Shown: in pieces, positions 1 through 24,138 of the stretch | How the letters are laid out: the number at the start of each line of letters is the position of its first letter | Numbering within the stretch: the stretch's first letter is position 1 | Assembly: GCA_026986135.1 (NCBI GenBank) | Contig: JALSPD010000168.1 | Location: 1-24,138, forward strand | From: DHVE2 group archaeon | GTDB lineage: Archaea; Thermoplasmatota; Thermoplasmata; Thermoplasmatales; Aciduliprofundaceae | Direction of reading: 5' to 3' | Length of the DNA stretch: 24,138 nucleotides | The notes under the pieces: generated by a model | Seen by the model: the letters and a program-made list of their open reading frames with translations, nothing else | What the model was told of the DNA's origin: nothing | Database searches by the model: none | Position numbers and translations under genes: made by a program

Positions 1-1599
1 GATCTTGCAGAGATGATGAGTTATGGATCCAATAACAACATAACAATAATCGTCCTTTACGATTCAACCTCAAATGGAGACTCTGCTATATACAAAATTG
101 AAAAAGGAAAAAAAGTGCTGTTGAAAGATCTAGGTGAAGTGGATATGGGCGACGGAGCCACTCTTGAATATTTTCTAAACTGGACGTATAAAAACTATCA
201 CGGGATGCACTACTTTCTTGATTTATGGGACCACGGAAGTTATTACACAGGCGTATGTCTCGATCATGGAGATTGGTTGACTCTTGAAGAAATAAAAAAA
301 TCTCTGGAAAAATTCAACATTATACGTGGTAAAAGACTGGAGGTCCTTGGATTTGATGCCTGCAGAATGGGTGGCATTGAAATATACTATGCTCTTGCTA
401 ATACTGCAGATTACATAGTTGCTTCAGAGAAGGATGAGCCTGCCAATGGATGGCCATATTATGATATACTAAGTAAAATTGAAGATAAAAATCCGGAGAA
501 TGCAAGTAAACTAGTAGTGGATTCTGTATATAATTGGGCTAGAAGATTCTATACCCAAGAGGGACTATCTGTAATCATGGCCTCAGTTAATACAAGCAGG
601 ATACCCCGATTCATCAAAGATTTTAACACTGCTTTAAATAACACCATACCCCTAGGACCATATCTGTCTGATAAGATAATAAATGCAACAAAGGATGTTG
701 AAAGATACGAACTTCACAGTGTTGTAGATCTCTACGATCTCATGGAAAAAATTGAAAGCATACATGACTATAAGCTTTCCATATTGGCAAGAATAACCAA
801 AGAGAATATTGAAAACATGACATATGCAAAAGCATGGGATTGTCCGCATCCTGCCAACGGATACCATGTAAGGAACGCACATGGTATTGGAATTTACTTT
901 CCAAGTTACACGATAAATCCAGAGTATTATTTCACAGATTTTGCAAAAGATTCACTATGGGACGAATTTCTTGATTCCATATTCTACCCCCAAACAATAA
1001 AAAGAGCCTCTGGGAGAGTAAACTATACCATTGTGGAAGATACACTTTTAGTTAAATACTCATCAAACTCCAGTTATGTGGAAATTTATGTAGAAAACAT
1101 TACAAACGGATATAGTGGAATAATAGGTCCTGAGGGTAAATTTAGTATAGCCATTGGTTACGGAAGTTTTACTATATTTATTTACGGATACAATAAAAAT
1201 GGTACGGTAAACTGGTATTTTCGGGAACATATAACAAGAATGAGAAAAATATATGTGGTTGGTAAGATATATATCAATGGATACCTTGCTCAGGGTGCTA
1301 GGTTGAAAATCACCGTGGGAAACCACAGTATATGCACCATCCAAAATGAAAGTGGCTTTAATATCACACTGTATTATCCTGAGCAAATACAAGACAATTC
1401 AACTATAGATATAGAACTTAATTTTGGCTACATACACAGAGTGTACGAATGCAAATTGGGTATACTGCGTGGTAGCACCATAACACAGATAGTAATAAAA
1501 GACCAAATAACACCCAACATACTACAAATGATATCAATTTCAACTATTTTGACCATACTGGTTTTTGTTATTATAAGAAAATTAAACAGATCCGTCTAG
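1..1599 (+). CDS. Clostripain-family (peptidase C11) cysteine protease with C-terminal beta-rich domains and a C-terminal membrane anchor; 5' end lies outside the window
   Basis: Frame is open from base 1 (DLAEMMSYGSNNNITIIVLYD). Catalytic His motif LWDHGS and catalytic Cys motif LGFDACRMG are present, plus YIVASE and GWPY segments typical of C11. Hydrophobic tail ILQMISISTILTILVFVII followed by RK. Confidence 0.88.
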   Translation, partial: DLAEMMSYGSNNNITIIVLYDSTSNGDSAIYKIEKGKKVLLKDLGEVDMGDGATLEYFLNWTYKNYHGMHYFLDLWDHGSYYTGVCLDHGDWLTLEEIKKSLEKFNIIRGKRLEVLGFDACRMGGIEIYYALANTADYIVASEKDEPANGWPYYDILSKIEDKNPENASKLVVDSVYNWARRFYTQEGLSVIMASVNTSRIPRFIKDFNTALNNTIPLGPYLSDKIINATKDVERYELHSVVDLYDLMEKIESIHDYKLSILARITKENIENMTYAKAWDCPHPANGYHVRNAHGIGIYFPSYTINPEYYFTDFAKDSLWDEFLDSIFYPQTIKRASGRVNYTIVEDTLLVKYSSNSSYVEIYVENITNGYSGIIGPEGKFSIAIGYGSFTIFIYGYNKNGTVNWYFREHITRMRKIYVVGKIYINGYLAQGARLKITVGNHSICTIQNESGFNITLYYPEQIQDNSTIDIELNFGYIHRVYECKLGILRGSTITQIVIKDQITPNILQMISISTILTILVFVIIRKLNRSV

Positions 1600-2044: not shown

Positions 2045-5000
2045 TTACGAATTGTCTCCATAGCCTCTATCTGGCGTGGGAACGTCTATGAAATAACTAC
2101 CTGAGAGCACATAAGATCTCCAAGAGGCACGATAATCGCCTTTTTCTCGGTACCCGAATATAGATGATGATTCATAATTTGTATGCATCCATAAGTTGTT
2201 CACCATGTAATAAACGTTTCTCAATCGGAGATCATCATATCCATGCTGCGGAAACTCCGAAATACCCACTTTATATATAATATACCGTATCTCATTGTTT
2301 AACCATACTACAAATTCGTCTTTGGTTGGCGTTCCATTGTACCATACTGCGTAGGTGACATCTTCTTCTGCATACATAATATTTACAAAAACGCCCAGCC
2401 TAAAACCAAGCGAATCATTGTAATTAACATATATATCTTTAAGCATTTTGTGGAACACGTGGATTAAATCTTCTTGGGTGATGAGCCCTGGCCTCAACCT
2501 GGGGAAGTATTGCTTAAGATTTGAAACCGCTCCGCTATCACCTATGAAACCAAAATCCACACGGTAAACATCCTGTTTTGCTTCCACAAACATTTTCATC
2601 ACTGCACCGCCACTGGATGTGTAATACGACATCTTGTTATAAGTTATACTTCCCGGACGTATTCCAATATGAATATCAATACCATCGTAGATTCCATTAA
2701 GATTAATTTTGAAACCTGCACGCTCCATAGTGCCCATAAAGTTGAAATTGCCTTCTGAGTATTTTTCTTCTATTTTTATAGAACCAATGTCAACAGAATA
2801 ATTTTGATATCCATTGTCCTCATAAACATGTCCACCGTTAGTTGCTGTGAATACCCTCTCAAAATAGAAGAATTTTAGATGTGATGCATAGCTTCCAGCT
2901 TTGGAAAACAGACTGTTTATATCCTGAGAAACTGTGGAAAAAGCGCTTACTGAGTTATTTAATGCATCATTAGTTTTTCTGGTAGCCTCCAGAATTATTC
3001 TTTCATAGGTATAATTCCAAGCAGCCATTTCATCTTTAGCATTTATAAGAGAGAAATGGTAAAATGTAGAATATCTGTTCCACAGTTCTCCAATCTTCTC
3101 ATAGTCATAAATGAAAGTATTCAACTCCCTGCTTACAAAGAATGGGTTAAACTTGCTATCACGAGAAACCATTTTAAAGTATCCTCTTGTGTAATTGAAT
3201 GGTACATCGGTATGAAACGCCCAATTATCAGCATGTGTGCATTTATTCCAGTGGGATTCCAAGAACCATGCGCTGTAAATAGGTATTTTAAGATGCAAAT
3301 TGAATTTAACCGTGTCATTATACCATGTATACCAGTGATGACCACCGTATACCAAAGAGGTTCTATCAGTTCTCAAATTTATATCTAGATGACCAGATAC
3401 ATATACATCAATTTGGTATTCATATGGCGCATTACCCATATTATAATCAACATCCTGCACATCTACAAACCTATGTCCTGGACCCACACCAACCATGATG
3501 CTGAGGTCGCTACCTTCCTGAAGATAATCCGGCTGAAAATCAACTACAATAGTCTCGTTCTTGGTTCTCTGAGCATATTCATCAAATGTACGATTAGTAT
3601 CCCAGAAATCGTAACGTGAAAGGCGCGTGTTTGGAAATATAGGTATGGAGGAATAGTTCGCATTTAGTAGAATATTTTTAGAAAGTACATCAAGAGACTG
3701 ATACATCCATTCGGTCATATTATCCAGTAAATTGCTTCCAATCCCTCTGGAAGACATAGCCCAAGCCTTCATTAAATTTGTAAACTTTGTAGTTCCATGG
3801 TAAACATCAAGGTCCACTGTTCCGCTAATTCCTGGCACAGATCCGCTGTCCGTATATTGCCAGAACATCCAATCACTCCAAACACCTGTATTTGGGGAAG
3901 AAACACCATAATGTGCAACCCACAGGTTCCATCTTGTAAGAGAGGGATCAAGATGTCTAGCATAATAACTGGACACATAGATTATCGGTGTAACCCCCAA
4001 CCTAGATTCAACACGTTCAAGGAAAGTCTTTGCCCAATTAGATAGGGCACCCCACCCCATGCTTTCTCCAACCTCTAGATCAAGAGCTGGCGGGAGAGTA
4101 AGATAGCTCATATATGGCTGAATTGTGTCCACAAAATGATCCGCCTCAGATATTGCCGAATTGCTTGTAGGTCTTGCAAAGTGATAGGCGCCTACCTCAA
4201 GTCCTGCTGCAGATGCACCCTGAATATTTGTAACAAACATAGGATCTTTATAAGTTACACCCTCGGAAGCCTTTACATACGCAAAGGTGTATCCTGCACC
4301 AGCCACTTGATTCCAGTCAATATTTCCCTGATAATGAGATACATCTAGCCCATGAGTGCCATTGGTTAAATTACCACTGTTGTTACCACCACCGCCACCA
4401 CTGTTATTCTGATCAGTACAAGGATCATATCCAGGAGGACCTATGATTCTCCAACCTACATGCCATCTCACAAAATGGCAGAAATTGGAATCATAGGTAC
4501 CTGTATCCGTAACATAATCAAGGAATGCCCTGAGATTATTAAAGTTCTGGGCATCAAAGTTTATTGGATTGAAATAGAAATACGGGAAATTGAAATTTAA
4601 ATCAGAGATCAAGCCATTATCGCCCACCACATTTTGTCGTGCCTCTTCGGTCTGATCTTTAACGGTATTCCAGACTTCCTCTGAATCATAATCTGGAAAA
4701 GCAATATCTGCACCCGATTTCTGCCACTCCTCTAGGGTCATCTCCCAAATTATGGCTATAATATCATTATATGCATCTCTAGTAAGGTCACGATGAAAGT
4801 TAAATGATCCATTATGGATCCTGTCATAGAAAGGATATCCATCATAACCCTGTGGCCATGTACTCTGTTGATAATCTGGTGGATATGAATCACAGTCATC
4901 ATCGTAAGGACCAGCATCATCACTTGGAGACGGATCACCACCATCATATAGATTTTTCATTGCCTCGTACCACAGATCAACTGTATCACGGGTAAGGTAA

Positions 5001-6823
5001 AATAGGTATGCATCGTCATCTGTGGAATTTTTGTATTTCTTGTAAGCACCATCCATCCACCAGTACTCTTTAAGCCAGAATATACTATTCTCAAAAGTAT
5101 TAACACCATCTTCCAGTGGTCCATGAATAATATCCCGTGATCCATCCACAAGTATGGTACTTTCATCCTTTGGATCAGCAGAAATAGGTGCGTAGGAATC
5201 TCCAATTAACTGAGCCATATCATAGGCAGCATGATCTACAAATCCTTTATTTGTTACATCATCCCAGGTATCCGATCGTCTTTTCATAGATCTGGTCAAA
5301 GCATCAATAACATACCTGAAAGCATTGTAATATTCATTGCCATCAGCATAATTCCCATGCTTATCCACAAATGACTTTTTGACCAGATCATACTCATAAG
5401 TATGATAAAACACTAAAGGGATATCCGTACTTTGTGAAACACCAATTGCATGCAGAGTGAAATATTGCCTTTTTCCATCCGGATCAAGAATAAGATCAAC
5501 CGTATCAGAGACTGGATCATTATATATGGTCCATTCCATTTTAGCAGTTGCAGGAACAGTAACAACCACAGGAGGTGTGGTAAGCCATATAAGCACTATA
5601 TCAAAATCAACGCTAATGTCTGCAGTATCCATATGAGGGTATATAACCTTTGGAATTTGCAGCCATTGCCTCCACTTATCAAGATAGATATAAAGCATCT
5701 GCCTAGCCCAATCTTCTCCTTTATTTTTTATTTTACTCCAAGACATTAAAGGTTCTTTGAGAGTTGGATCTGCAAAGTATTCGTTTGCTAAATTATCACC
5801 CCAGAAAAGTCTAAAAAGTTCATAAACAAACCTATCTGCATAGCTGTACATTGCCTGGCCAATTATCTTTCCTACAGCAATCTCATCATCCACATTGTTC
5901 CACAGGAAATAAACATCTGCCGCATCAATAGTCCCTGTTCTGGCATATCTGTCCAGTATTCCACGTATACCCAAGGCATTTGCAGCATCCTCATCATAAG
6001 TATGGAAAAATCTAACACTTTGAAGCATTAATGCAAGATTCACTGCCTTCTCTACATCTTGCTTTGTTAACACCTCTGTTACTGGCACCTCAATGCCATC
6101 ATAGGCTCCGGCTGCATAGCCCTCAAGAATCCTATACTGGGCAATAGTAGTTAAAATATATCTCATCAATCTACCAAAATCACCCATATTCGTGGTAGAA
6201 CTGTTAAACTCATCAAATACAAATTTAAGTAATGGCAAAGGTGAATAAATAATCCTGTTATATTTCATCATTCTCTTAATCTCATATCCTGTGCGTTTAT
6301 CATGATACGTATAATTGACAAATCCAACCACATAGGGATAAACGGGCAGTTGCGTGCTGTTTCTGTATCCCTCCTTCCTGTTATCCAACATATAATCAAA
6401 ATTAACCCATGTTAACCTGTAACTTTTTATGAAATCCCTCGTCTTCTTATAGTCCATTACAACTTTTATGGAGAAGTTGCCGACAGTAATATTGTAATCC
6501 TGAGTTATTAGCGGAAAGGTATAATTTATATACTCAGAAAAATTCTGGAAAACATAATACTGAATCATGTATATTTTGGGATCTCTCTTCTTGGTAACAT
6601 TATGGATCACATCCATTACAATATGATACGCCTTTTCACGTACCATATCATGAACATGCCTTAGATTTTCATCAGCCTCTTCATAGAACTTTTGTACACT
6701 GTTTATGTTGTGATAGCCCAATATTGAGGCATAAATCCCAGCTAACATCAACATCAAAACAAAAATTATGGCAAACACGTATGCAAACGGTATTCTTCCT
6801 CCCTCCTTCTTTATCATCTTCAT
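2045..6823 (-). CDS. 1592-aa exported protein with a pilin-like/class III-like N-terminus and an internal GH25 muramidase (lysozyme) domain
   Basis: N-terminus MKMIKKEGG-RIPFAYVFAIIFVLMLMLAGIYASILG (charged leader, Gly, one hydrophobic helix). About 23 N-x-S/T sequons by hand count. GH25 domain at aa ~822-1010. Strong RBS, and the start is 1 nt from the upstream stop. Confidence 0.9.
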   Translation of the reverse strand: MKMIKKEGGRIPFAYVFAIIFVLMLMLAGIYASILGYHNINSVQKFYEEADENLRHVHDMVREKAYHIVMDVIHNVTKKRDPKIYMIQYYVFQNFSEYINYTFPLITQDYNITVGNFSIKVVMDYKKTRDFIKSYRLTWVNFDYMLDNRKEGYRNSTQLPVYPYVVGFVNYTYHDKRTGYEIKRMMKYNRIIYSPLPLLKFVFDEFNSSTTNMGDFGRLMRYILTTIAQYRILEGYAAGAYDGIEVPVTEVLTKQDVEKAVNLALMLQSVRFFHTYDEDAANALGIRGILDRYARTGTIDAADVYFLWNNVDDEIAVGKIIGQAMYSYADRFVYELFRLFWGDNLANEYFADPTLKEPLMSWSKIKNKGEDWARQMLYIYLDKWRQWLQIPKVIYPHMDTADISVDFDIVLIWLTTPPVVVTVPATAKMEWTIYNDPVSDTVDLILDPDGKRQYFTLHAIGVSQSTDIPLVFYHTYEYDLVKKSFVDKHGNYADGNEYYNAFRYVIDALTRSMKRRSDTWDDVTNKGFVDHAAYDMAQLIGDSYAPISADPKDESTILVDGSRDIIHGPLEDGVNTFENSIFWLKEYWWMDGAYKKYKNSTDDDAYLFYLTRDTVDLWYEAMKNLYDGGDPSPSDDAGPYDDDCDSYPPDYQQSTWPQGYDGYPFYDRIHNGSFNFHRDLTRDAYNDIIAIIWEMTLEEWQKSGADIAFPDYDSEEVWNTVKDQTEEARQNVVGDNGLISDLNFNFPYFYFNPINFDAQNFNNLRAFLDYVTDTGTYDSNFCHFVRWHVGWRIIGPPGYDPCTDQNNSGGGGGNNSGNLTNGTHGLDVSHYQGNIDWNQVAGAGYTFAYVKASEGVTYKDPMFVTNIQGASAAGLEVGAYHFARPTSNSAISEADHFVDTIQPYMSYLTLPPALDLEVGESMGWGALSNWAKTFLERVESRLGVTPIIYVSSYYARHLDPSLTRWNLWVAHYGVSSPNTGVWSDWMFWQYTDSGSVPGISGTVDLDVYHGTTKFTNLMKAWAMSSRGIGSNLLDNMTEWMYQSLDVLSKNILLNANYSSIPIFPNTRLSRYDFWDTNRTFDEYAQRTKNETIVVDFQPDYLQEGSDLSIMVGVGPGHRFVDVQDVDYNMGNAPYEYQIDVYVSGHLDINLRTDRTSLVYGGHHWYTWYNDTVKFNLHLKIPIYSAWFLESHWNKCTHADNWAFHTDVPFNYTRGYFKMVSRDSKFNPFFVSRELNTFIYDYEKIGELWNRYSTFYHFSLINAKDEMAAWNYTYERIILEATRKTNDALNNSVSAFSTVSQDINSLFSKAGSYASHLKFFYFERVFTATNGGHVYEDNGYQNYSVDIGSIKIEEKYSEGNFNFMGTMERAGFKINLNGIYDGIDIHIGIRPGSITYNKMSYYTSSGGAVMKMFVEAKQDVYRVDFGFIGDSGAVSNLKQYFPRLRPGLITQEDLIHVFHKMLKDIYVNYNDSLGFRLGVFVNIMYAEEDVTYAVWYNGTPTKDEFVVWLNNEIRYIIYKVGISEFPQHGYDDLRLRNVYYMVNNLWMHTNYESSSIFGYREKGDYRASWRSYVLSGSYFIDVPTPDRGYGDNS
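3794..4360 (-). other. Glycoside hydrolase family 25 (Chalaropsis-type muramidase) domain within the 1592-aa CDS
   Basis: GLDVSHYQG (first catalytic Asp), FAYVKASEG, GAYHFARP, ALDLE (DxE catalytic pair), PIIY, LWVAHY, WMFWQYT and G..GTVDLDV are all present in the correct order. Confidence 0.95.
4361..4411 (-). repeat. Low-complexity Gly/Asn linker (QNNSGGGGGNNSGNLTN) with an 11/12-identical 12-nt repeat, just N-terminal to the GH25 domain
   Basis: AATAACAGTGGT (4408-4397) and AACAACAGTGGT (4384-4373) flank a GGT/GGC run. Confidence 0.8.
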
Positions 6824-6824
6824 T

Positions 6825-7349
6825 TTACCTCACCCTCCATACATACATTGTTATCATCGCTTTATCATTATTCTGAGGCATATCAATATATGTTGTAAAA
6901 CTTATCCTGTTATCAGGAAGCACTCCTGAACCTATGACAAAATGAACTCCATGGTAGCTAGCATGTAAAGAATACTCATAAATCGGATATGTCATATTTC
7001 TGAGAGTAACATTTATTTTTTCTTCTAAACCCATCTTCAAAGTAGCTATGTCTGCACCACCTACAGATCTTAGATACAAATCTTCCGAAATCAAATGTTC
7101 AATAGTTTTGTCTTCCAAGATAATTAAATTACCTGAGGAATCATAATACCATACATAGCGGATAGTTGATTTAAGCATGGAATATGTAAGATCCTCTGCA
7201 AATCTTTTTTCATTTCTTTCTGTAAAGAAAACATTTGTATTAGATGAGGCAATAATGTACCCCACCATGAGAATCATCATCAATATTGGCGCTATGAGAG
7301 CGGCATCAACTACCGCGGATTGGGCCCTTTCATAAACAATTATCGCCAT
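6825..7349 (-). CDS. Small pilin-like protein with a class III-like signal peptide
   Basis: N-terminus ERA|QSAVVDAALIAPILMMILMVGYIIAS has the [KR][GA]|Q-S pattern followed by a hydrophobic helix. C-terminal strand MITMYVWR. Perfect GGAGGTGA RBS and a 10-nt overlap with the upstream gene. Confidence 0.7.
   Translation of the reverse strand: MAIIVYERAQSAVVDAALIAPILMMILMVGYIIASSNTNVFFTERNEKRFAEDLTYSMLKSTIRYVWYYDSSGNLIILEDKTIEHLISEDLYLRSVGGADIATLKMGLEEKINVTLRNMTYPIYEYSLHASYHGVHFVIGSGVLPDNRISFTTYIDMPQNNDKAMITMYVWRVR
6828..6838 (-). promoter_or_regulatory. Ribosome-binding site (GGAGGGTGAGG) for the 1592-aa gene
   Basis: Ends 4 nt upstream of the ATG at 6823, embedded in the end of the upstream CDS. 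Confidence 0.7.
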
Positions 7350-7822
7350 GCAATCACCTCCAGTTTAGCAGGATGCACTTCATGATCATTAACCCATATA
7401 TTTACAGGATATATCACCACCACTTTGTAGTATCCATATTTTATATCCTCTGGTGTGCCAAAAGTAGCGTTGTATTTAATAACATAATCACTGCAGTCAG
7501 TTATGTTTATAAAGAAATTAAAACTTGGAGCAAGATCCCTTGCGATAAGATTGTGCATCTCTGTACTGTTATAACCCTTTATCTTATGATAGTCAAACAG
7601 CCCTTCTACAGAATCGTGGAGTATTCTCTCGTATCCACGCACTTTCTGCACAAAATCATAGACCTGATTTATAAATTCCACCTTTGCGTACTCTTCAGCC
7701 TTTGTACTTCCATAATATGCAGCCATTGTTAATGTAGAAACAAACAATATGGTGACGACTGCAAATAAAATCAGCTCTTCAAAGAATCCGCTAGTTCCAG
7801 TATCATTCATAGAAATCTTCAT
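7340..7822 (-). CDS. Small pilin-like membrane protein (start uncertain: 7837, 7828, 7822 or 7810)
   Basis: MKISMNDTG|TSGFFEELILFAVVTILFVSTLTMAAYYG: short leader ending in Gly, acidic residue at +6, one hydrophobic helix. C-terminal strand KLEVIAWR. GGTGA lies 5 nt before the ATG at 7822, and the gene overlaps the upstream stop. Confidence 0.62.
   Translation of the reverse strand: MKISMNDTGTSGFFEELILFAVVTILFVSTLTMAAYYGSTKAEEYAKVEFINQVYDFVQKVRGYERILHDSVEGLFDYHKIKGYNSTEMHNLIARDLAPSFNFFINITDCSDYVIKYNATFGTPEDIKYGYYKVVVIYPVNIWVNDHEVHPAKLEVIAWR
7354..7361 (-). promoter_or_regulatory. Ribosome-binding site GGAGGTGA
   Basis: Canonical archaeal SD sequence 4 nt upstream of the ATG at 7349. Confidence 0.8.
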
Positions 7823-10800
7823 ACTCATCACCCACATCTACTTCCTCACTCCTATATATCACCTTTGGTTTCACTCCACGGATAGGAATTTCTTTAGCCT
7901 TTTCATGAAGCATTTTCCTTCGTATTAAGAGTGCTACTATTCCTACCAACAAAAACATCAGAAGAACCCATATCCACCAATTTACAAGGTACCAAGGAGT
8001 AACAAAAATCTCAAAACCTCTACTTTCTGCAGAGTTCCCAAATGTATCATACGAGACTATGTAAAATTCTAATTTGGAAGGTATAACATCGTCCCCAGGA
8101 ATATAGGCCACCCATTTATCTCCCTCTTTTTTCATATTCAGGGCGGTATATGTATCTGTATCTTGAGTACGATAATAGAGCATTGCTGAGGTCACGTTAG
8201 AATACTCATCTACAATAGTGGCAGTAATTTTAATTTTTTCGCCCTCATCAACTTTTAAAGGATAAATTACATCTGATACCTTTGGGCCTTTAGTATCAAC
8301 AATAATCGTCTTTGATATGGGTTTCATCTCATTCCCAGCAAGATCTTTTGCACCATAAACGGTAATATTTACAGGACCATATTCATCTTTTATATCGTAT
8401 CTTCCGGTCCAGAGAGTAGAGTTTATCCAATGCCCAACCACCGGATATCCTCCAAAATCCACATGAATTGTATCTGGAGATATATCCTCACTAAAGCTTA
8501 TTGTGATATTCACCACATTGTGTCCAACTATCTTCATTGTTGGCTCTAAAAATATTGCCACTGGAGAGTCTGTATCTACAGTAAAATTTTTGCTTGTGCT
8601 ATTGGTATTCCCAACAGTATCAGAGAAAACAGCATATATCTCATACACTCCCGAACTCCAAGAATAATCTACATCCACAGTCCCACGCCATAGGGTGGAG
8701 GATAACCATATACCCTCAATGGTATGATTCCATGTAGAATTTCTGCATATAAAAATTGTAGAATTCTTATCCACCTCTTCGCTGAATTGTATAGTTATAT
8801 TTACTGTACCCGGCCCAAAAGGTTCTTTATCATCAAGGGAAATAATTGCCGTGGGGGCGATATTATCGGCATAAATATAGAAAGAATAGTTTTCCTGTAT
8901 GTTACCTGCAATATCTTTTGCACCCATAATGGTCAATTCAACCCTTTCTGAGATACTTGCACTCAATGACATACGAATGAGAGCAGTCTTATTGTCTAAC
9001 CAATTAATTGATTTTATGGAAAACGCACTCTGATCTCCAAACGCCACTCCTGGATAAATTGAGGTATTCATAGCCTCATTATATGTAACACTTATATCAA
9101 AATCATCCCTCACATATAACTTTCCATCCATAGTTATATTTGGAGATATAACAAGAGATTCCACCGCTGGTTTTTTTGTATCAACATCCACTGTAAAGTA
9201 ATAAGGCCTCATTGAATTACCCACCACATCCTTTGATCCATAAAGCTGAATTTCCACTTTACCCTCAACATTCATATTAACTGAAAAAGCAAGTTTCAAA
9301 TCTGAAGGGGTTGTCCACACCCTAGAAGTCACCGTAATAATACTTGGATCAATGGAAATTGATGGGAATAAACTGGTATCCATATATTCAGAAAAATGGA
9401 ATGACATTGAGAAATCACTAGAGACAAGACCACTAATATTCGTCCTATAGAGAACCTTTGGAGGTACCGTATCCACATGAAGAGCTATGGAGTAGCTCTC
9501 CATTCTATTTCCTGCCGTGTCTCTAGCACCAGCAATAGTAATAAGGATTTCCCCATCATATTTGCCATATATAACAAACTCCTGCCTCCAGGTACGTGAA
9601 TTTAACCAGTATCCGGCAGATTTAGTTACGTTGGCTGATGTGATGCTGACGCCAGGATCTATATTGGTAAGCATATCTTTATTGAAAAGTAAATCAATAG
9701 TGAAATTCTCACGCACATACATCTTACCACCAATAATTATAGAAGGTGTGACTGATGAAGACACCACATTAGGAGGAGCCTGATCTACAGGAAGTATCTC
9801 GGTAGCATTAGAAGAAACATCACCGTGCGTAAACACTATTGTTGATGCGTCCGTAGGTACTAGATCACTGGAAGAAATAGACACAGAAAATATATGATGA
9901 TAGGCAAGATAAGATGTGGTAATATCTGCCAAAACAAACAGGTAAATTTCTTTTCCGGGATCAACAGTAAGACCCAAATTTGAAAAAATTGCTCTGCCAC
10001 CATAAAAAGTGGTGTTGCGGACTAGATTATCTCCAACATTATACTCACCATTACCATTCTCATCTTCAAAAAGTTTGATGTGAGTAATATCAGAATCTGT
10101 TGCATTTCCTTTCAATTCAATGGATAGGTTGGTTACCCCCACAGTATCTCCTATAGCCCCTAACTTTATCTTTAACAGATAAACATTTCTGGCACCAACA
10201 CTTACATTCGCCGGTGAACGAGAATAGCCCACAGCATACAAAAGAGGCGAATTTGAAGTTCCTGGGGTGGCTGAACTTCCATTGCTAACATACCAATCAG
10301 ATGCACGATCATTATCTACTCCGTTGGGAACCAATGAGATACTTCCTCCTAAGTAAGGCGCAGGTGCACAGCCCCATGCCCCAGAACCATCCAAGGTAAA
10401 ATTGATTCCCGAAGGTGGAGAATCCACATCAAGATCACCTGACCCACGTGAATATGCCATATAATCAATATAATGCCCATTATATATCAAAAGAACATCA
10501 TCTCCATCATCGTTCCACATATTCTCAATACCTGTATGAAGGATCGCATATCCCGTGGAAAAATCATATTGATTATCTCCATTGCCTGAATAAATAATCA
10601 AAAACTTTCCTGGTGGCATATAATACAAGTCATCAGGGATCGTATAGGTATTTCCATCTTGGTCCGTAAGTATCCATCCATTAAGATAAACATTCTCTGT
10701 ACCTGCATTATACAACTCAATCCATTCATCGCTTCCTGAACCAACAGACGATACTTCGTTGATAACAATTTTAAGAGGTGTTCTGTAAAAATGGACCACT

Positions 10801-12437
10801 ATAGATGTATCGCGGGTAATATAATATGAGGTATTATCGTAAGTATATAATCCATCAGGAACCCCTATGGATACTGTAGTCTGATTGTCACATAGGTCTT
10901 CAAAAAATGGATGATCTGAATTCAAAGGAATGGTCCTTTCACTTCCAAACTTATAGTAGATAACAGTAGTTGACTCACTACCAAGCCCGGTAACAGAAAC
11001 TGATATTGTGTGCATATCTCTAACATCAAAATGAAAAGTATAAGGTCCATATCCCGCCACTCTTTTTATTACCACTGAATAGGTACCTGTAGTATCACTT
11101 AATGATAATCTATAAACCACACTTTCTATAACCCCATCACCCACATGTGCTGCGGAGGTTAAAAGTTTCCCATTGGGATCATACAGATAAACATCATAAT
11201 CAGCATTTTGATTTGGGGTCATCTGAAACACTATGGTCTGCTTAGTAGATATATCATCCTGAGTTATTTCAAATTCCCAAGTGTCCTGGGGATCATTGTA
11301 GTTGGTTTTGCCATTGTACTCCGTTATCAGATACCCGGCACCATCGCTTCCCCGTGCAACAGTTCTGGGATTATTATCAGAATCACTTTCTACAAAAAAC
11401 CATACGTCTGCCCACCCATCATCGCCACTTGTTTCTGCATATGGTGAAGATGTATCCCCACTCCATGTTTTGGTTACGGTATTATAAGTAATGGTAAAAG
11501 AACCATAATCGTCATCACCCCCACAGGCTCCCGAATCATCCTCGTAAACATGAACCGTTATCTGAACAGTATTAGCAGTAACATATGCTGTAAACGTGGC
11601 ATCTCCAGACCAAGAATCCTCATCCTCAGGACCTGTAAATGTCCAAGAAGAGCTGCCAATATAGATCCGCATATATATGTCATTACCTGAATAACAATCA
11701 GATTCGCCAGAATAGTAATCAACAATATGCAATGTAACGTTAACTCCACCTTTAGATTTATAATTAGGTGAACTTTCAGAAACTGTTTCAGGATTACTAT
11801 GAACGTTGAATGGTCCAATCATTTTGTCGTCTATGCTTTTTATCCCATATTCTATCAGATAGGCTAACCTCCAGTTATCTATTTGATTATCAAGAAGATA
11901 GCAAAGCCATTCAAGATGATCAATAAGAGTATCATTGTACCAATCTTTCATATACCAAAACCTGCTATCACCACTAGCCAATTCCTCAGCATATTTTACA
12001 CGATAACCCTCAAGGGTATTGAGCCAATGACGAACCTCCCATCTGCGGCGATTTTCCGTTAGCAATTCCCACTCATACTTTACAATATCTTTCCTTATAA
12101 ACTCTGTACGATAAACAGGTCCCGCTGTTTCATGAATTAAACGGGAAGCATATTTTTCTTCAATACAATTATTCACATTACCATCCACAAAATCTCCGGA
12201 AGAAACAGGAGTATCCTTATATAAAGAAGACATTGGATCCTGCAAACTAACCCATTTTCTAAGAGAACTCTCATTGTAGTCTTCAATATATTTTTTTAAG
12301 GACCTTAAAAATTCGTCATAGCTCATCTCGGGATGATCTGAGATAGAAGATAGATATGATGGTGTCTGATGTAATATAATACTAAATAATGTTGTGAAAA
12401 AAAGCATTGCAAGGGCAAACGATACCACACGTTTCAT
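7803..12437 (-). CDS. ~1544-aa secreted, C-terminally membrane-anchored multidomain surface protein: unknown helical domain, C2-like domain, PPC domain, lamin-tail domain (LTD), about 7 Ig-like repeats, transmembrane helix, charged cytoplasmic tail
   Basis: Signal peptide MKRVVSFALAMLFFTTLFSIIL (start moved from 12575 to 12437). LTD motif IVINEV...DEWIELYN...LNGWILTD at ~10770-10250. PPC-like ADYDVYLYDPNG at ~11300-11030. Repeated D-x-x-G-N...D-T-x-x-P motifs at ~9790-8030. TM WWIWVLLMFLLVGIVALLI followed by RRK. Confidence 0.85.
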   Translation of the reverse strand: MKRVVSFALAMLFFTTLFSIILHQTPSYLSSISDHPEMSYDEFLRSLKKYIEDYNESSLRKWVSLQDPMSSLYKDTPVSSGDFVDGNVNNCIEEKYASRLIHETAGPVYRTEFIRKDIVKYEWELLTENRRRWEVRHWLNTLEGYRVKYAEELASGDSRFWYMKDWYNDTLIDHLEWLCYLLDNQIDNWRLAYLIEYGIKSIDDKMIGPFNVHSNPETVSESSPNYKSKGGVNVTLHIVDYYSGESDCYSGNDIYMRIYIGSSSWTFTGPEDEDSWSGDATFTAYVTANTVQITVHVYEDDSGACGGDDDYGSFTITYNTVTKTWSGDTSSPYAETSGDDGWADVWFFVESDSDNNPRTVARGSDGAGYLITEYNGKTNYNDPQDTWEFEITQDDISTKQTIVFQMTPNQNADYDVYLYDPNGKLLTSAAHVGDGVIESVVYRLSLSDTTGTYSVVIKRVAGYGPYTFHFDVRDMHTISVSVTGLGSESTTVIYYKFGSERTIPLNSDHPFFEDLCDNQTTVSIGVPDGLYTYDNTSYYITRDTSIVVHFYRTPLKIVINEVSSVGSGSDEWIELYNAGTENVYLNGWILTDQDGNTYTIPDDLYYMPPGKFLIIYSGNGDNQYDFSTGYAILHTGIENMWNDDGDDVLLIYNGHYIDYMAYSRGSGDLDVDSPPSGINFTLDGSGAWGCAPAPYLGGSISLVPNGVDNDRASDWYVSNGSSATPGTSNSPLLYAVGYSRSPANVSVGARNVYLLKIKLGAIGDTVGVTNLSIELKGNATDSDITHIKLFEDENGNGEYNVGDNLVRNTTFYGGRAIFSNLGLTVDPGKEIYLFVLADITTSYLAYHHIFSVSISSSDLVPTDASTIVFTHGDVSSNATEILPVDQAPPNVVSSSVTPSIIIGGKMYVRENFTIDLLFNKDMLTNIDPGVSITSANVTKSAGYWLNSRTWRQEFVIYGKYDGEILITIAGARDTAGNRMESYSIALHVDTVPPKVLYRTNISGLVSSDFSMSFHFSEYMDTSLFPSISIDPSIITVTSRVWTTPSDLKLAFSVNMNVEGKVEIQLYGSKDVVGNSMRPYYFTVDVDTKKPAVESLVISPNITMDGKLYVRDDFDISVTYNEAMNTSIYPGVAFGDQSAFSIKSINWLDNKTALIRMSLSASISERVELTIMGAKDIAGNIQENYSFYIYADNIAPTAIISLDDKEPFGPGTVNITIQFSEEVDKNSTIFICRNSTWNHTIEGIWLSSTLWRGTVDVDYSWSSGVYEIYAVFSDTVGNTNSTSKNFTVDTDSPVAIFLEPTMKIVGHNVVNITISFSEDISPDTIHVDFGGYPVVGHWINSTLWTGRYDIKDEYGPVNITVYGAKDLAGNEMKPISKTIIVDTKGPKVSDVIYPLKVDEGEKIKITATIVDEYSNVTSAMLYYRTQDTDTYTALNMKKEGDKWVAYIPGDDVIPSKLEFYIVSYDTFGNSAESRGFEIFVTPWYLVNWWIWVLLMFLLVGIVALLIRRKMLHEKAKEIPIRGVKPKVIYRSEEVDVGDEYEDFYE

Positions 12438-12513
12438 CGTTGAAAATATAGCAAATCCCCTATTTATCACTTTCGCAAACGAAAAAATTAAACATAAAAG
12501 AGAAATACCCATT
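12438..12513. promoter_or_regulatory. Divergent promoter region: minus strand CGAAAG-T-GATAAATA (12475-12461); plus strand GAAAAAA-TTAAACAT (12481-12495)
   Basis: Both BRE/TATA-like elements lie about 20-30 nt upstream of the inferred ATGs (12437 and 12514), consistent with leaderless transcripts. Confidence 0.45.
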
Positions 12514-13905
12514 ATGGATAGAATGGTGCTAACTTCAGGATCCCAAGTAAGATATGTGGAGACAAAAAAGTTCACTATACCCCCGGAATTAAAAGTTGTA
12601 TCCCAAGATAATCCCGTAGATGTAGTTGTATGCGGTGATTACAACTCAAAATATAGGGAGATTGCTGAATACTTAGCAAAAACAATATCCCAAAATGAAA
12701 AATTCTATGCTTATTCATTTTTAAGCGGGGCAAAGATTAAGGTAGAGGGAGATGGACGTGAGGACTTTGAACCCAGATATATTGACCATTTTTCACTCTA
12801 CCATACTGTAGATAAATTGAAAAATCTTTATCTATACGCCAGCAGAATACCTAATGGATCCGTATTGTTGATTGAAGACATTGATGAACTTGTACTAGAT
12901 TATAAAATGCGCCATGATACGGTGACTGTTGAAGAGATTGTATATCTGCTTCATCAGGATCTTGTTAAAAATGGAGGATTAAACCTGGTAATCCCCACAA
13001 TCCACAAGAATATAGAGCTAATAACAATTGTTGATACATTACTCACCATAGATGTGGAAAAAATTGGTGATTATCCAATTCAGGTGATAAACATAGAACA
13101 GGTAAGAAAGAAAAAACTAAAGAAAACGTATGTAATAGGTGGCTCTGAAGGAAAATACATGTTTTATAAATCTACCGAGAAATACAAAAAAGGGAAACTA
13201 GGTATTGTATCCCCTACAAAAATGATATCTACCGGCATAAGGGATCTGGACATCTACTTGGGGGGCGGATTATCTCCAGGTACATATAATGTTATTGAAA
13301 TTAGCAACGATGTTCCCGAGGAAATTTACAATGTTATATTATTCAGCATAGCCATATCCAATATAAAATCACACCGGGGTGTGCTCCTAGCACCATCTGA
13401 AAGATTTTCAACTGAAGAATACTATAGAATAATAAAAGCACATATAGACGAGTCAGAAATCAGATTTTTAAAAATAATAAAAAGTACTCCTCTTGTTGAA
13501 AAATTGAATTACATTGTGGACGGATTTTCAAAAACACCTGAAGATAGGCATGCTATATGGAAAAGTGTTATGGAATATTTAAACAGAATAAGCGAAGGGC
13601 CGGTCTTAGATATAACAGAATACGGACCAATTGAAGCAAGGTATTCCGGAGAGGAATTAATTACTCTTGTAACTCAAGGGATAAACTGGCTTAGCGAATG
13701 GGGAGATATTGGCATTGGCATACTTCCAGAAGAAAGCGAAGTAAAAAGAAATATAATGTATTTGACAAGAAACTATCTTAAAATCTTTGATTTTCACGGA
13801 GTTTATATGATACAGAGCATTAAACCACGTAGATCCCCAAAAATTATACAGATGGGATCAGATAACAACGAAATTAATATCCGTTTAAGGAGGCTGATAT
13901 ATTGA
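12514..13905 (+). CDS. GvpD-like / RAD55-KaiC family protein with two RecA-like domains and degenerate P-loops
   Basis: IPPEL...VVVCGDYNSKYR occupies the Walker A position of domain 1. Domain 2 starts MISTGIRDLDIYLGGGLSPGTYNVIEI, the typical KaiC/GvpD start, but has no GKT. Start moved from 12394 to avoid overlap with the divergent gene. Confidence 0.7.
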   Translation: MDRMVLTSGSQVRYVETKKFTIPPELKVVSQDNPVDVVVCGDYNSKYREIAEYLAKTISQNEKFYAYSFLSGAKIKVEGDGREDFEPRYIDHFSLYHTVDKLKNLYLYASRIPNGSVLLIEDIDELVLDYKMRHDTVTVEEIVYLLHQDLVKNGGLNLVIPTIHKNIELITIVDTLLTIDVEKIGDYPIQVINIEQVRKKKLKKTYVIGGSEGKYMFYKSTEKYKKGKLGIVSPTKMISTGIRDLDIYLGGGLSPGTYNVIEISNDVPEEIYNVILFSIAISNIKSHRGVLLAPSERFSTEEYYRIIKAHIDESEIRFLKIIKSTPLVEKLNYIVDGFSKTPEDRHAIWKSVMEYLNRISEGPVLDITEYGPIEARYSGEELITLVTQGINWLSEWGDIGIGILPEESEVKRNIMYLTRNYLKIFDFHGVYMIQSIKPRRSPKIIQMGSDNNEINIRLRRLIY

Positions 13906-22385: not shown

Positions 22386-24138
22386 TTAACTTGCAAGCCA
22401 ATGAATTATATTATACATCAATTCTGCTCCGACACTGGCGTCCTTCTTCTCTACAGCCTCAAAGGAAAATGCTGTAAACACCGTCTTGAAGTTTCCATGC
22501 TGATAGGAGGCAGCAGTGATATAGCCCTTATAATCCACGAATACGGGATTTGCATCCGAGCGTATTCCAAGACGATCAGCATAGTTATGATATGGATACT
22601 TGAAGTACACCACGCCGAAATCACCGCTTATTGGATTGCCACTGAGACCATACACACGGGTATACCCAACATCATTCTGAACTTTCAATACACCAAGGTA
22701 ATCATTTGCAAATCTATTGTTCACAGCACCATCGTAACCACCGGTAACCTCCCATAGAAAGTCCTGAGATGAAAGATACAGTCTGCCACCATGTTCCAGG
22801 TACTTTATGAGATTTTGCTGGTCTTCTGGGGTAAGCGTGTATTTGTAAGTATATCCTGTACTCCATATCACAATGCCATAATTAATAAGATCTCTGTAAC
22901 TAGGGGAATAACCAATGCGATAAACATCCCATTCATAAACCTCAAACTCATTGGTCAACCCAGAATCTATCAAGGCCTGCTCAATATATTTATTCACCAC
23001 ACTTCCACCATCATCATCCACAAATAGAATCTTATTGGATAACAGTCCCGAATTAGCCGCATGCGGCGTCGCACTAACCTCATTGCTCTTATCGCTCTCA
23101 CCGTAGGAATTCACAGCGGTCACGTAGTAGTAATATGTCACTCCATTGCTAACTCCAGTATCCGTATAACTGTACGTTGAGCCTGATACCGACGCTAGGA
23201 ACGTCTCTCCACCCGATGTCGTGCCCCTGTATATCCTGTACTGCGTTATCACACTGCCTCCATTCTCACTCGGCGCAGTCCAGCTTAGCTTCACATACCC
23301 ATCTCCCGCCGTCGCCTGCAGGTTCAACGGTGCGCTCGGTGCACTGCCTCCATTGTTGCCTCCTCCGTTCATCAGCCACTCTATAATCCTCTTCATAAGC
23401 TGCGCTCCTGTGCTCGCACTGTTCTTCTCAACCGCCTCAAACGAGAACGCAGTGAATACGGTCCTGTACTTGCCTCCATCGTACCTCACTCCCGTAGCTG
23501 CTCCGCTGCTGTCCTTGAATATCACCACTCCTGATCCTACTCCCACCTCATCCGCATAGTTGTAGAACGGATAGCTTAGCGTTATGCTCCCAAATCCCCC
23601 GCTTATCGGATCTCCGCTCACTCCCTTGACCTCGCCGTAACTCTTGTCATTCGCTACACTGCTCACACCAAGATAGTTGTTCACAAATTCATTGCTTATC
23701 GCTCCATCATTCCCGCCACTCAAATCCCACAACAGATCCTGTGAACTCAAATACAGCTTCCCACCATTGTTCAAATACGCTATCAACGCATTCTGCTCCT
23801 CGCTCGTAAGCGTGTTCTCCCACATTGATCCCGTGCTCCATATCACAACCTTATACTTGCTCAGCGTGTTCGCATCAGGCGTGCCACTGCTCGCCGTGTC
23901 CCATACATCATAACCGTATCCTGCATCACTAAGTGCGCTCTTTATGTACGTATCATAATCCTTTCCCCCATCATCATCCACAAAGAGTATGTCCTTAGCC
24001 ACATTGCTCGCATGCGGCGTCGCACTAACCTCATTGCTCTTATCACTCTCACCGTAGGAATTCACAGCGGTCACGTAGTAGTAATACGTAACTCCATTGC
24101 TAACTCCGGTATCCGTATAACTGTACGTTGAGCCTGAT
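22386..24138 (-). CDS. 3' part of a large repetitive surface protein made of [fibronectin type III + ~210-aa ILFVDDDGG domain] units; 5' end lies outside the window
   Basis: Frame is open to the window edge (SGSTYSYTDTG...). FN3 segment APSAPLNLQATAGDGYVKLSWTAP...YRIYRG...YYYYVTAVNSYGES at ~23343-23064. Two homologous alpha/beta domains at ~23990-23372 and ~23030-22389. Confidence 0.88.
   Translation of the reverse strand, partial: SGSTYSYTDTGVSNGVTYYYYVTAVNSYGESDKSNEVSATPHASNVAKDILFVDDDGGKDYDTYIKSALSDAGYGYDVWDTASSGTPDANTLSKYKVVIWSTGSMWENTLTSEEQNALIAYLNNGGKLYLSSQDLLWDLSGGNDGAISNEFVNNYLGVSSVANDKSYGEVKGVSGDPISGGFGSITLSYPFYNYADEVGVGSGVVIFKDSSGAATGVRYDGGKYRTVFTAFSFEAVEKNSASTGAQLMKRIIEWLMNGGGNNGGSAPSAPLNLQATAGDGYVKLSWTAPSENGGSVITQYRIYRGTTSGGETFLASVSGSTYSYTDTGVSNGVTYYYYVTAVNSYGESDKSNEVSATPHAANSGLLSNKILFVDDDGGSVVNKYIEQALIDSGLTNEFEVYEWDVYRIGYSPSYRDLINYGIVIWSTGYTYKYTLTPEDQQNLIKYLEHGGRLYLSSQDFLWEVTGGYDGAVNNRFANDYLGVLKVQNDVGYTRVYGLSGNPISGDFGVVYFKYPYHNYADRLGIRSDANPVFVDYKGYITAASYQHGNFKTVFTAFSFEAVEKKDASVGAELMYNIIHWLAS
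23059..23187. repeat. Copy 1 of a near-identical intragenic direct repeat (C-terminal half of the FN3 domain)
   Basis: 125 of 129 nt identical to 24010-24138; period 951 nt (317 codons). Confidence 0.95.
24010..24138. repeat. Copy 2 of the intragenic direct repeat, truncated by the window edge
   Basis: 125 of 129 nt identical to 23059-23187; all 4 differences are synonymous. Confidence 0.95.

Follow-up and report, generated by a model that had tools for sequence, protein, structure and literature searches.

In haloarchaea, a subclade of type IV filament (T4F) systems known as subsystem 4F is encoded by loci that contain a large adhesin-like protein and have FtsZ/CetZ next to them (Makarova 2016; Sivabalasarma & Albers 2026). 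Peptidoglycan hydrolases are likewise common in archaea; about two thirds of them carry no recognised Sec or Tat signal, and by what route they get to bacteria has yet to be settled (PMC12352652). Aciduliprofundum boonei obtained its GH25 lysozyme from Firmicutes, and this enzyme is lethal to Bacillaceae and Paenibacillaceae (Metcalf et al. 2014, eLife; PMC4241558). Here, we describe a locus of a DHVE2 group archaeon in which a GH25 muramidase domain is part of a 1592-amino-acid (aa) protein encoded directly behind two small proteins with pilin-like N-termini. The stretch of DNA analysed, referred to as the window, comprises 24,138 nucleotides (contig JALSPD010000168.1, assembly GCA_026986135.1), and the three genes, termed small1, small2 and large, are treated as a triad.

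On balance, we lean slightly towards reading this triad as a set of old, widespread prepilin-like surface proteins that belong to an archaeal T4F system of the Thermoplasmata and through which the GH25 domain is displayed. The nearest existing concept is the bindosome, along with a proposal from 2026 in which T4F machines are 'functionalised' to bind substrates. The occurrence of GH25 in this archaeal family and of large adhesin-like proteins in T4F loci is already known; in the literature searched, there is no mention of DUF7284-7289, nor of a muramidase joined to an archaeal T4F or to a class III signal.

The conserved triad and its putative N-terminal signals

The conserved unit of this locus is small1-small2-large and not a set of four genes. 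The first-pass annotation, made from the sequence of the window, had included a giant surface gene upstream of small1 in a four-gene operon; a homologue of that giant occupies the same position in just one other genome (G023), with comparable large genes upstream of the triad at loci L071, L072 and L038, and it is the three-gene unit that recurs. Both small genes were found only in genomes with the large protein, immediately upstream of its gene and with GH25 present or absent, in the genus of the window, its sister genus and a neighbouring family. Moreover, the triad is strictly co-located across the genus, sister genera and many families of the class Thermoplasmata. With 420 residues from the N-terminus of the large protein as query, homologues were detected in 159 of the 401 class genomes searched (53 of 104 genera), mostly in open reading frames (ORFs) of 1200-2160 aa. 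According to hidden Markov models of small1 and small2, the two small genes sit directly upstream of the large one in many Thermoplasmata families, small1 always adjoining small2. The small2 profile collected 95 cluster representatives from a library of 1.8 billion proteins; none of the 84 small2 relatives scanned contains a Pfam family, and Pfam and NCBIfam searches with the small proteins of the window returned only a sub-threshold TadE match. Using a narrow alignment, a search for related loci yielded 17, all from metagenome-assembled genomes (MAGs), which by their names belong to Thermoplasmata (13), Thermoplasmatota (2), Aenigmatarchaeota (1) and Methanobacteriota (1). The other triad loci are flanked by housekeeping genes, e.g. 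Nop5, MoaE, ThiF and Hef.

At a locus of different composition in another lineage, L038 (255-10609, plus strand; CAYRFL010000079.1), the small1-small2 pair stands last in a run whose other members are DUF58, a 1393-aa Ig/VWA7-like giant and three genes lacking annotation, and no DUF7286-like gene follows the pair. The 1499-aa gene near this pair was considered as a homologue of the large protein and turned out not to be homologous. DUF58 commonly accompanies MoxR/vWA systems, and such systems have been reported near archaeal type IV pilus (T4P) loci. In G023, an archaellum operon lies at a distance of about 4 kb from the triad; we regard this as coincidence, with unrelated genes in between and no such arrangement at the other loci examined.

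Each protein of the triad has a single N-terminal transmembrane (TM)-like segment, and the pilin-like character that the first-pass annotation had ascribed to the three N-termini appears to be borne out at family level for all of them. If a slash is placed between positions -1 and +1, the small1 family follows the motif [charged][GA]/xx[GD]F[FY]E[ED][LIV]P, the small2 family [KR][GA]/QSx[LV][FI]DAxLFF, in which the Asp is nearly invariant, and the large family [charged or small][GA]/R[IV]PFA, each preceded by a short, variable and basic leader. The proteins of the window read ..DTG/TSGFFEELILFAVV at the N-terminus of small1, ..ERA/QSAVVDAALIAP.. at that of small2 and ..EGG/RIPFAYV at the leader end of the large protein. 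According to our own regular expression, which approximates the FlaFind consensus, a FlaFind-like class III site is found in 62 of 84 small2 relatives and in the window copy (ERA/QS). The pattern [charged][GA]xx[GD]F[FY]E[ED] fits 21 of 27 small1 relatives, and Gly or Ala stands at -1 in all 34 relatives of the large protein, 20 of which also have a charged residue at -2. Judged by these patterns, the N-termini seem to be built in the manner of a class III (prepilin) signal, albeit with an imperfect fit. Conserved charges lie within the helix of each family, namely Asp in small2, Glu-Glu/Asp in small1 and Arg in the large protein. As the profiles of small1 and small2 align in register over 23 N-terminal columns only (11.6% probability), paralogy of the two small proteins is unsupported by sequence.

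Relationship of the large protein to DUF7286

An ESM Atlas search pointed the large protein towards DUF7286. The corresponding Pfam family (PF23957) matches 12 of 17 N-terminal domains sampled across the class, with a best E-value of 4.5e-8, and is found as precomputed annotation on some close relatives. Alignment of the family profile with a DUF7286 protein of Halorussus limi by hhalign gave a probability of 95.7% and an E-value of 8.9e-9 over 261 columns, including the common N-terminal RGRVPFALV. By transitivity, the large protein would thus represent a divergent DUF7286 protein. With regard to the small families, a DUF7287 profile found no match in this genome, and a DUF7288 profile gave one sub-threshold match of 17 bits on C176.

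In Halorussus, genes for DUF7310, DUF7311, a T2SSE ATPase, a platform protein, DAO, DUF7283, DUF7285, DUF7284 and DUF7286 form a run beside CetZ, which agrees with the published description of subsystem 4F. DUF7286 is probably the 'adhesin-like' giant subunit (arCOG02945) of haloarchaeal loci of the subsystem 4F type.

Type IV filament machinery of the genome

The first-pass annotation had named a genome devoid of type IV machinery as fatal to its interpretation; among the genes of this genome are those for T4F ATPases and platforms and for a class III signal peptidase of archaeal type. On contig C26, the gene for an 808-aa T2SSE ATPase precedes that for a 661-aa platform, and pilin genes do not adjoin them; contig C27 carries the 280-aa class III signal peptidase (Arc_PepC_II 52.2 bits, cut-off 29.9; Peptidase_A24 22.5 bits). 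The 1708-aa gene behind the C26 platform, a candidate pilin by position, encodes an Lhr helicase instead. The Halorussus ATPase aligns with the C26 ATPase at 248 bits and with three other ATPases tested at no more than 91 bits, and the Halorussus platform matches solely the C26 platform. Judging from these matches, a cognate ATPase and platform for the triad are probably provided in trans by C26; trans-encoded pilins are known for euryarchaeal systems.

In several relatives, an ATPase/platform pair of this type lies close to the triad, and in another Thermoplasmata family the two adjoin. In G198, a run comprising a small2-like gene, a 621-aa gene, a C26-type ATPase (E 2e-180) and its platform is divergent from the large gene. 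The distance between a C26-type ATPase and the large gene or triad is 4-7 kb in five places (G412, G082, twice in G350, and G002, the last belonging to the same genus as the window), and 12-23 kb in four more genomes. In raw counts by family, the triad and the C26-type ATPase are similarly distributed; they were both unfound in families f7 (43 genomes), f5, f3, f14, f16, f19 and f26, and both are present in the same 5 of 59 genomes of f17 and the same 3 of 33 genomes of f29.

Many C26-type ATPase orthologues of about 760 aa in families f21 and f10 (e.g. G146:C25, G215:C16, G262:C18 and G250:C17) contain one or two in-frame TGA/TAA codons inside the match. In other lineages, the N-terminal extension of the ATPase, i.e. 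its first ~200 residues, is a separate ORF of 200-230 aa. These in-frame stops may mark the boundary of a gene for the N-terminal extension, or something else.

Predicted structures

The AF2 model of small2, based on 84 sequences, has a pLDDT of 95 and a pTM of 0.79, and shows a helix spanning residues 3-60 followed by a beta-beta-alpha-alpha-beta4 head. For the N-terminal domain of the large protein (37 sequences), the pLDDT is 73, and a helix of residues 13-77 is followed by a second helix and long beta-hairpins; 10-residue block means mostly exceed 85 for residues 20-130 and 160-200. Hence, a long N-terminal helix with a head is predicted in both models, comprising 58 residues in small2 and 65 in the large protein. 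Look-alikes of small2 in the ESM Atlas include the archaeal families DUF7284, 7285, 7287 and 7288.

The GH25 domain and its insertion

That the 1592-aa protein harbours an intact GH25 domain, as initially annotated, is confirmed by a Pfam match to PF01183 at residues 827-999 (E 2e-48, 165.6 bits). Compared with cellosyl (1JFX; E 6e-35), the catalytic Asp, the Asp-x-Glu and the C-terminal Asp are kept, and alignment to 1JFX and 4KRU reveals DVSH, LDLE and VDLD as conserved; by sequence, the domain is a GH25 muramidase. The contig itself is archaeal because it encodes aIF2-beta, RNase HII, Lhr and PyrB/PyrI, and its GC content is near 0.37.

Full-length orthologues bearing GH25, with 53-78% identity, are encoded in 7 of 8 other genomes of the genus searched, one being cut by a contig end. 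Orthologues of 1261-1280 aa without GH25 occur in the sister genus (G013), in the neighbouring family (G023) and in P0015. Since such GH25-less orthologues exist and BLAST alignments to them break at residue 795 and at 988-1012, GH25 and its Gly/Asn/Ser linker represent an insertion of ~216 residues into an older protein. The recent arrival of the domain on an older and widespread scaffold had escaped the first-pass annotation, as had its second fusion in another lineage.

Altogether, GH25 was detected in 21 of the 401 class genomes. In family f32 (G150, G143, G271 and the NCBI MAG contig JAOAJK010000001.1), the domain is found at the C-terminus of the same scaffold, at residues ~1400-1590, with 59% identity to the domain of the window and with small1 and small2 upstream; related genomes furthermore encode smaller GH25 proteins, 557-630 aa in length. 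A tree was built from 33 GH25 domains of the Thermoplasmata. In it, all seven mid-scaffold copies group in a single clade within the genus (support 100/100), whose sisters are stand-alone or tandem copies from the same family, and the three C-terminal copies form a separate clade (99/95) that groups with copies of family f17 (99/98). As inserted and C-terminal copies belong to different clades, the scaffold acquired GH25 on at least two occasions, and the local sources differed.

Most closely related to the inserted copies, as their sisters, are two tandem GH25 domains in a 1207-aa ORF of the same genus (G003:C14:185-1405, minus strand), possibly the donor of the insertion. One in-frame TAG splits the large gene in G023:C5 (L024, ~12431) and in G271:C1, with homology running on both sides, which could reflect a pseudogene, a sequencing error or read-through. 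The gene directly after the large gene with C-terminal GH25 on JAOAJK010000001.1 (L037, 14443-17274, plus strand) encodes a protein of 943 aa that combines a transglutaminase core with a pseudomurein-binding repeat (PMBR) and may be a second cell-wall-directed protein in that neighbourhood.

Proposed mechanism and alternative explanations

In the mechanism proposed here, the subunits would be synthesised with the short basic leader seen in their sequences, and this leader would be cut by C27's class III signal peptidase. The trans-encoded C26 ATPase and platform would then extract the subunits from the membrane and assemble them via their N-terminal helices. The product would be a tip or priming complex of minor pilins or, alternatively, a short surface structure resembling the bindosome. 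GH25, which in this genus is inserted in the mid-subunit linker, would be held outside the cell and cleave bacterial peptidoglycan. Location at a tip, dependence on contact and killing are pure conjecture at this stage. We know of no cultured member of the genus. Compared with the initial interpretation of a muramidase displayed by a pilus-like apparatus, the T4F machinery of the genome stands, the pilin-like N-termini appear to hold at family level, and the DUF7286 link adds to them; Tad membership is unsupported, and the four-gene operon is not conserved. A wider claim is advanced only tentatively: the Thermoplasmata would use a dedicated T4F machine to display or deliver antibacterial enzymes, and the DUF7286 giant would be the modular carrier, having taken up GH25 on at least two independent occasions.

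Several observations weigh against assigning the triad to a T4F system. No ATPase, platform or peptidase was found beside the triad in the window or at most other loci, where the neighbours are housekeeping genes, and a major pilin for this system was not identified. Regarding the signals, position -2 of the window's small1 is occupied by Thr, and the Arg at +1 of the large protein lies outside the published class III consensus. The sequences of the window fall below every Pfam DUF728x threshold, the large protein giving no DUF7286 match at E<=0.1; few of the small proteins scanned match DUF7287/DUF7285, and these weakly, and hhalign comparisons of the small1 and small2 profiles with single Halorussus DUF7285 and DUF7284 proteins were insignificant. 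Co-occurrence with the C26-type ATPase, again counted by family with kinship ignored, is discordant in f12 (14/48 vs 0/48), f10 (44/46 vs 21/46) and f30 (6/8 vs 1/8), and G005 has the ATPase without the triad. Finally, the expectation of pilin-like predicted structures held for the long N-terminal helix with its head and failed in the comparison with solved structures: Foldseek searches of the PDB with both models yielded no solved pilin and no other credible match (best E ~1e-2 to 3e-3, TM <0.31), and the small2 head has a PAS/PDC-like topology, periplasmic histidine kinase sensor domains being among its ESM Atlas look-alikes.

Much of this would be expected if the three proteins were uncleaved, type II (N-in, C-out) anchored proteins which, independently of any T4F, form a static envelope complex via the charges of their TM segments and merely tether GH25 to the membrane. 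The housekeeping surroundings devoid of assembly genes, the missing match to solved pilins and the likeness of the small2 head to TM-anchored PAS/PDC sensor domains all suit such a complex, and the complementary charges (Asp; Glu-Glu; Arg) could equally drive the formation of an in-membrane heterotrimer. However, this explanation accounts neither for the Gly/Ala that stands exactly ahead of a conserved motif in three unrelated families nor for the homology to DUF7286, whose gene lies in a run with an ATPase and a platform, and the repeated proximity to and co-occurrence with one type of ATPase/platform speak against it as well; we consider it rather unlikely. Alternatively, the scaffold might be an export vehicle only, from which GH25 is freed by proteolysis at the linker to act as a diffusible lysin or as a murein scavenger for a peptide fermenter. 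The linker ahead of GH25 is flexible, of low complexity and rich in Gly/Asn/Ser, the domain is found in the smaller proteins of related genomes mentioned above, and the A. boonei domain, when purified, is sufficient to kill bacteria (PMC4241558). A C11 clostripain-family peptidase, probably surface-exposed because it is rich in sequons and has a C-terminal TM-like segment, is moreover encoded 446 bp from the stop of the large gene. Yet two independent fusions suggest that the scaffold contributes more than export, and since GH25 is internal, with ~580 conserved residues behind it, release would need two cuts. Taken as the whole explanation, release seems quite improbable to us, and as an additional step it would possibly be compatible with either a filament or a static complex.

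A recent mobile or viral acquisition of the GH25 locus, unrelated to the surface biology of the host, was also considered, as GH25 of this lineage is bacterial by horizontal transfer (PMC4241558). Against such an origin, GC content is even across the locus (0.35-0.42), the flanks consist of archaeal housekeeping genes, the scaffold and small genes are spread in a largely vertical-looking manner over 53 of 104 genera, and the seven inserted copies form one clade in the genus. Based on composition, flanks and distribution, this origin was rejected, and we regard it as scarcely credible. Prepilin-like surface proteins of a T4F system remain the reading that we prefer for the triad.

If this is true, the locus would offer a concrete export route, with the enzyme placed on a giant T4F subunit carrying a class III signal. 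It would represent the first 'weaponised' archaeal T4F and a delivery route for some of the peptidoglycan hydrolases without Sec/Tat signals, and would extend the idea of 'functionalised' T4F from solute binding to interdomain antagonism. At the same time, a triad lacking functional annotation (159/401 Thermoplasmata genomes searched) would receive its first plausible biochemical function. The two independent GH25 fusions suggest a general carrier scaffold, and other members may hold other cargo domains.

Gene arrangement and neighbouring genes

The coordinates of the locus are compiled in Table 1. The four minus-strand ORFs lie where they were first placed (7803-12575, 7340-7837, 6825-7349 and 2045-6823), and their junctions likewise agree, with a 20-nt overlap (7803/7822), a 10-nt overlap (7340/7349) and a 1-nt gap (6825/6823). 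Shine-Dalgarno-like sites reported earlier were retrieved upstream of the small2 start (GGAGGTGAT) and the large start (GGAGGGTGAGG), and GGTGAT or GGAG/GAGG precedes the small1 starts; from this arrangement, the four genes appear to be co-transcribed. N-glycosylation sequons reach about twice the expectation in all four encoded proteins, and cytoplasmic neighbours stay at or below expectation.

Table 1 Features of the locus in the window
Feature	Position	Strand	Remarks
Large subunit gene, 1592 aa	2045..6823	-	Class-III-like leader and helix, DUF7286-like N-domain, inserted GH25, conserved C-terminal region
Large subunit, N-terminal 420 aa	5564..6823	-	AF2 model, R[IV]PFA motif, hhalign to Halorussus DUF7286
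Inserted segment, residues ~796-1011	3791..4438	-	Gly/Asn/Ser-rich linker and GH25; missing in GH25-less orthologues
GH25 catalytic domain, residues 824-1010	3794..4354	-	Pfam, 1JFX alignment, tree
small2, 174 aa	6825..7349	-	Class-III-like N-terminus, alpha/beta head
small1, 160 aa from ATG 7822	7340..7822	-	165 aa if start at 7837
Upstream giant, Lamin Tail Domain (LTD) and Ig-like domains, C-terminal TM	7803..12437	-	1544 aa from ATG 12437; ORF open to GTG 12575
KaiC/RecA-like divergent overlapping pair, 503 and 230 aa	12394..14594	+	Pfam KaiC E 1.5e-9 (230-aa protein only)

The upstream giant had been described as a surface protein with an Ig stalk, and this holds: it combines a Lamin Tail Domain and Ig-like domains with a signal-like segment at the N-terminus and a TM at the C-terminus. 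It is best seen as an accessory of variable occurrence, similar to the S-layer-like proteins that have been reported from archaeal pilus loci. The KaiC/RecA-like pair may encode regulators, although the link is weak. KaiC-family ATPases have been described near archaeal T4P loci (PMC4858521), and the pair of the window fits this association; no such pair adjoining the triad was found at the other loci examined.

At one end of the window (13-1599, plus strand), the Peptidase_C11 clostripain-family protein (E 1e-42) has the top sequon density in the window, with 30 per 1000 aa. Its gene is separated from the stop of the GH25-bearing gene by a single small ORF, and it is possibly a surface protease able to process neighbouring surface proteins. 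At the other end (22386-24137, minus strand), an fn3-domain surface protein is encoded by an ORF that continues past the contig end. It contains a near-exact internal repeat, in which a ~45-residue fn3 tail plus a ~230-residue module is present in two copies, and GC content rises up to 0.51 in the final kilobase.

Comparison with known systems

The triad shares with TadE/TadF/TadG of bacterial Tad pili and with Kil, a Tad-like killing apparatus of Myxococcus, the combination of two small pseudopilin-like proteins and one large protein. The motifs are alike as well, in that a Gly and a few residues precede an acidic residue and a Pro-containing hydrophobic run. Membership in TadE/TadF/TadG, as suggested by the first-pass annotation, was not upheld: TadE (PF07811) matches at E 0.076 with 13.6 bits (cut-off 22.9), and no vWA domain was found. 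Among the 84 small2 relatives, there was no TadE match at E<=0.01, and PF13400 (Tad) matched one of 41 sequences (E 0.027). The comparison with Tad is hence best taken as an analogy only; to our knowledge, Kil does not bear a muramidase on a pilin.

The Sulfolobales bindosome, with its sugar-binding proteins bearing class III signals, resembles the proposed system in that a functional, non-filament protein has a pilin-like N-terminus and depends on a T4F ATPase/platform (BasEF) encoded elsewhere, whereby a surface structure acquires a biochemical function. In contrast, the cargo of the bindosome is a solute-binding protein that works with ABC transporters, and that of the triad is a glycoside hydrolase within a 1592-aa subunit. 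The two are unrelated in sequence, and the dependence on the assembly machinery, which was shown experimentally for the bindosome, is a prediction from sequence for the triad.

The A. boonei GH25 lysozyme (UniProt B5ID12) stems from the same archaeal family and the same GH25 lineage as the domain of the window, with which it shares 51% domain identity and intact catalytic residues. Unlike the latter, it is a protein of 574 aa and not part of a DUF7286 scaffold. The 574-aa GH25 proteins of genus g5 correspond to this lysozyme, and neither the triad nor the C26-type ATPase was found in the g5 genomes searched.

A close counterpart is haloarchaeal subsystem 4F. Its large DUF7286 protein, to which the large protein of the triad is homologous and with which it shares the N-terminal RGRVPFA motif, is likewise directly preceded by small N-terminally anchored proteins (DUF7283/7285/7284), and the ATPase/platform is of the same type as on C26. 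Here, however, ATPase and platform are encoded in trans, and two small proteins instead of three, weakly related to the DUF families, precede the large gene. GH25 is missing from the published descriptions and from the single DUF7286 protein of haloarchaea that was examined, in which Pfam recognises DUF7286 alone. Compared with haloarchaeal DUF7286, the large protein of the triad is 1.3-2 kb longer and carries the enzymatic GH25 domain.

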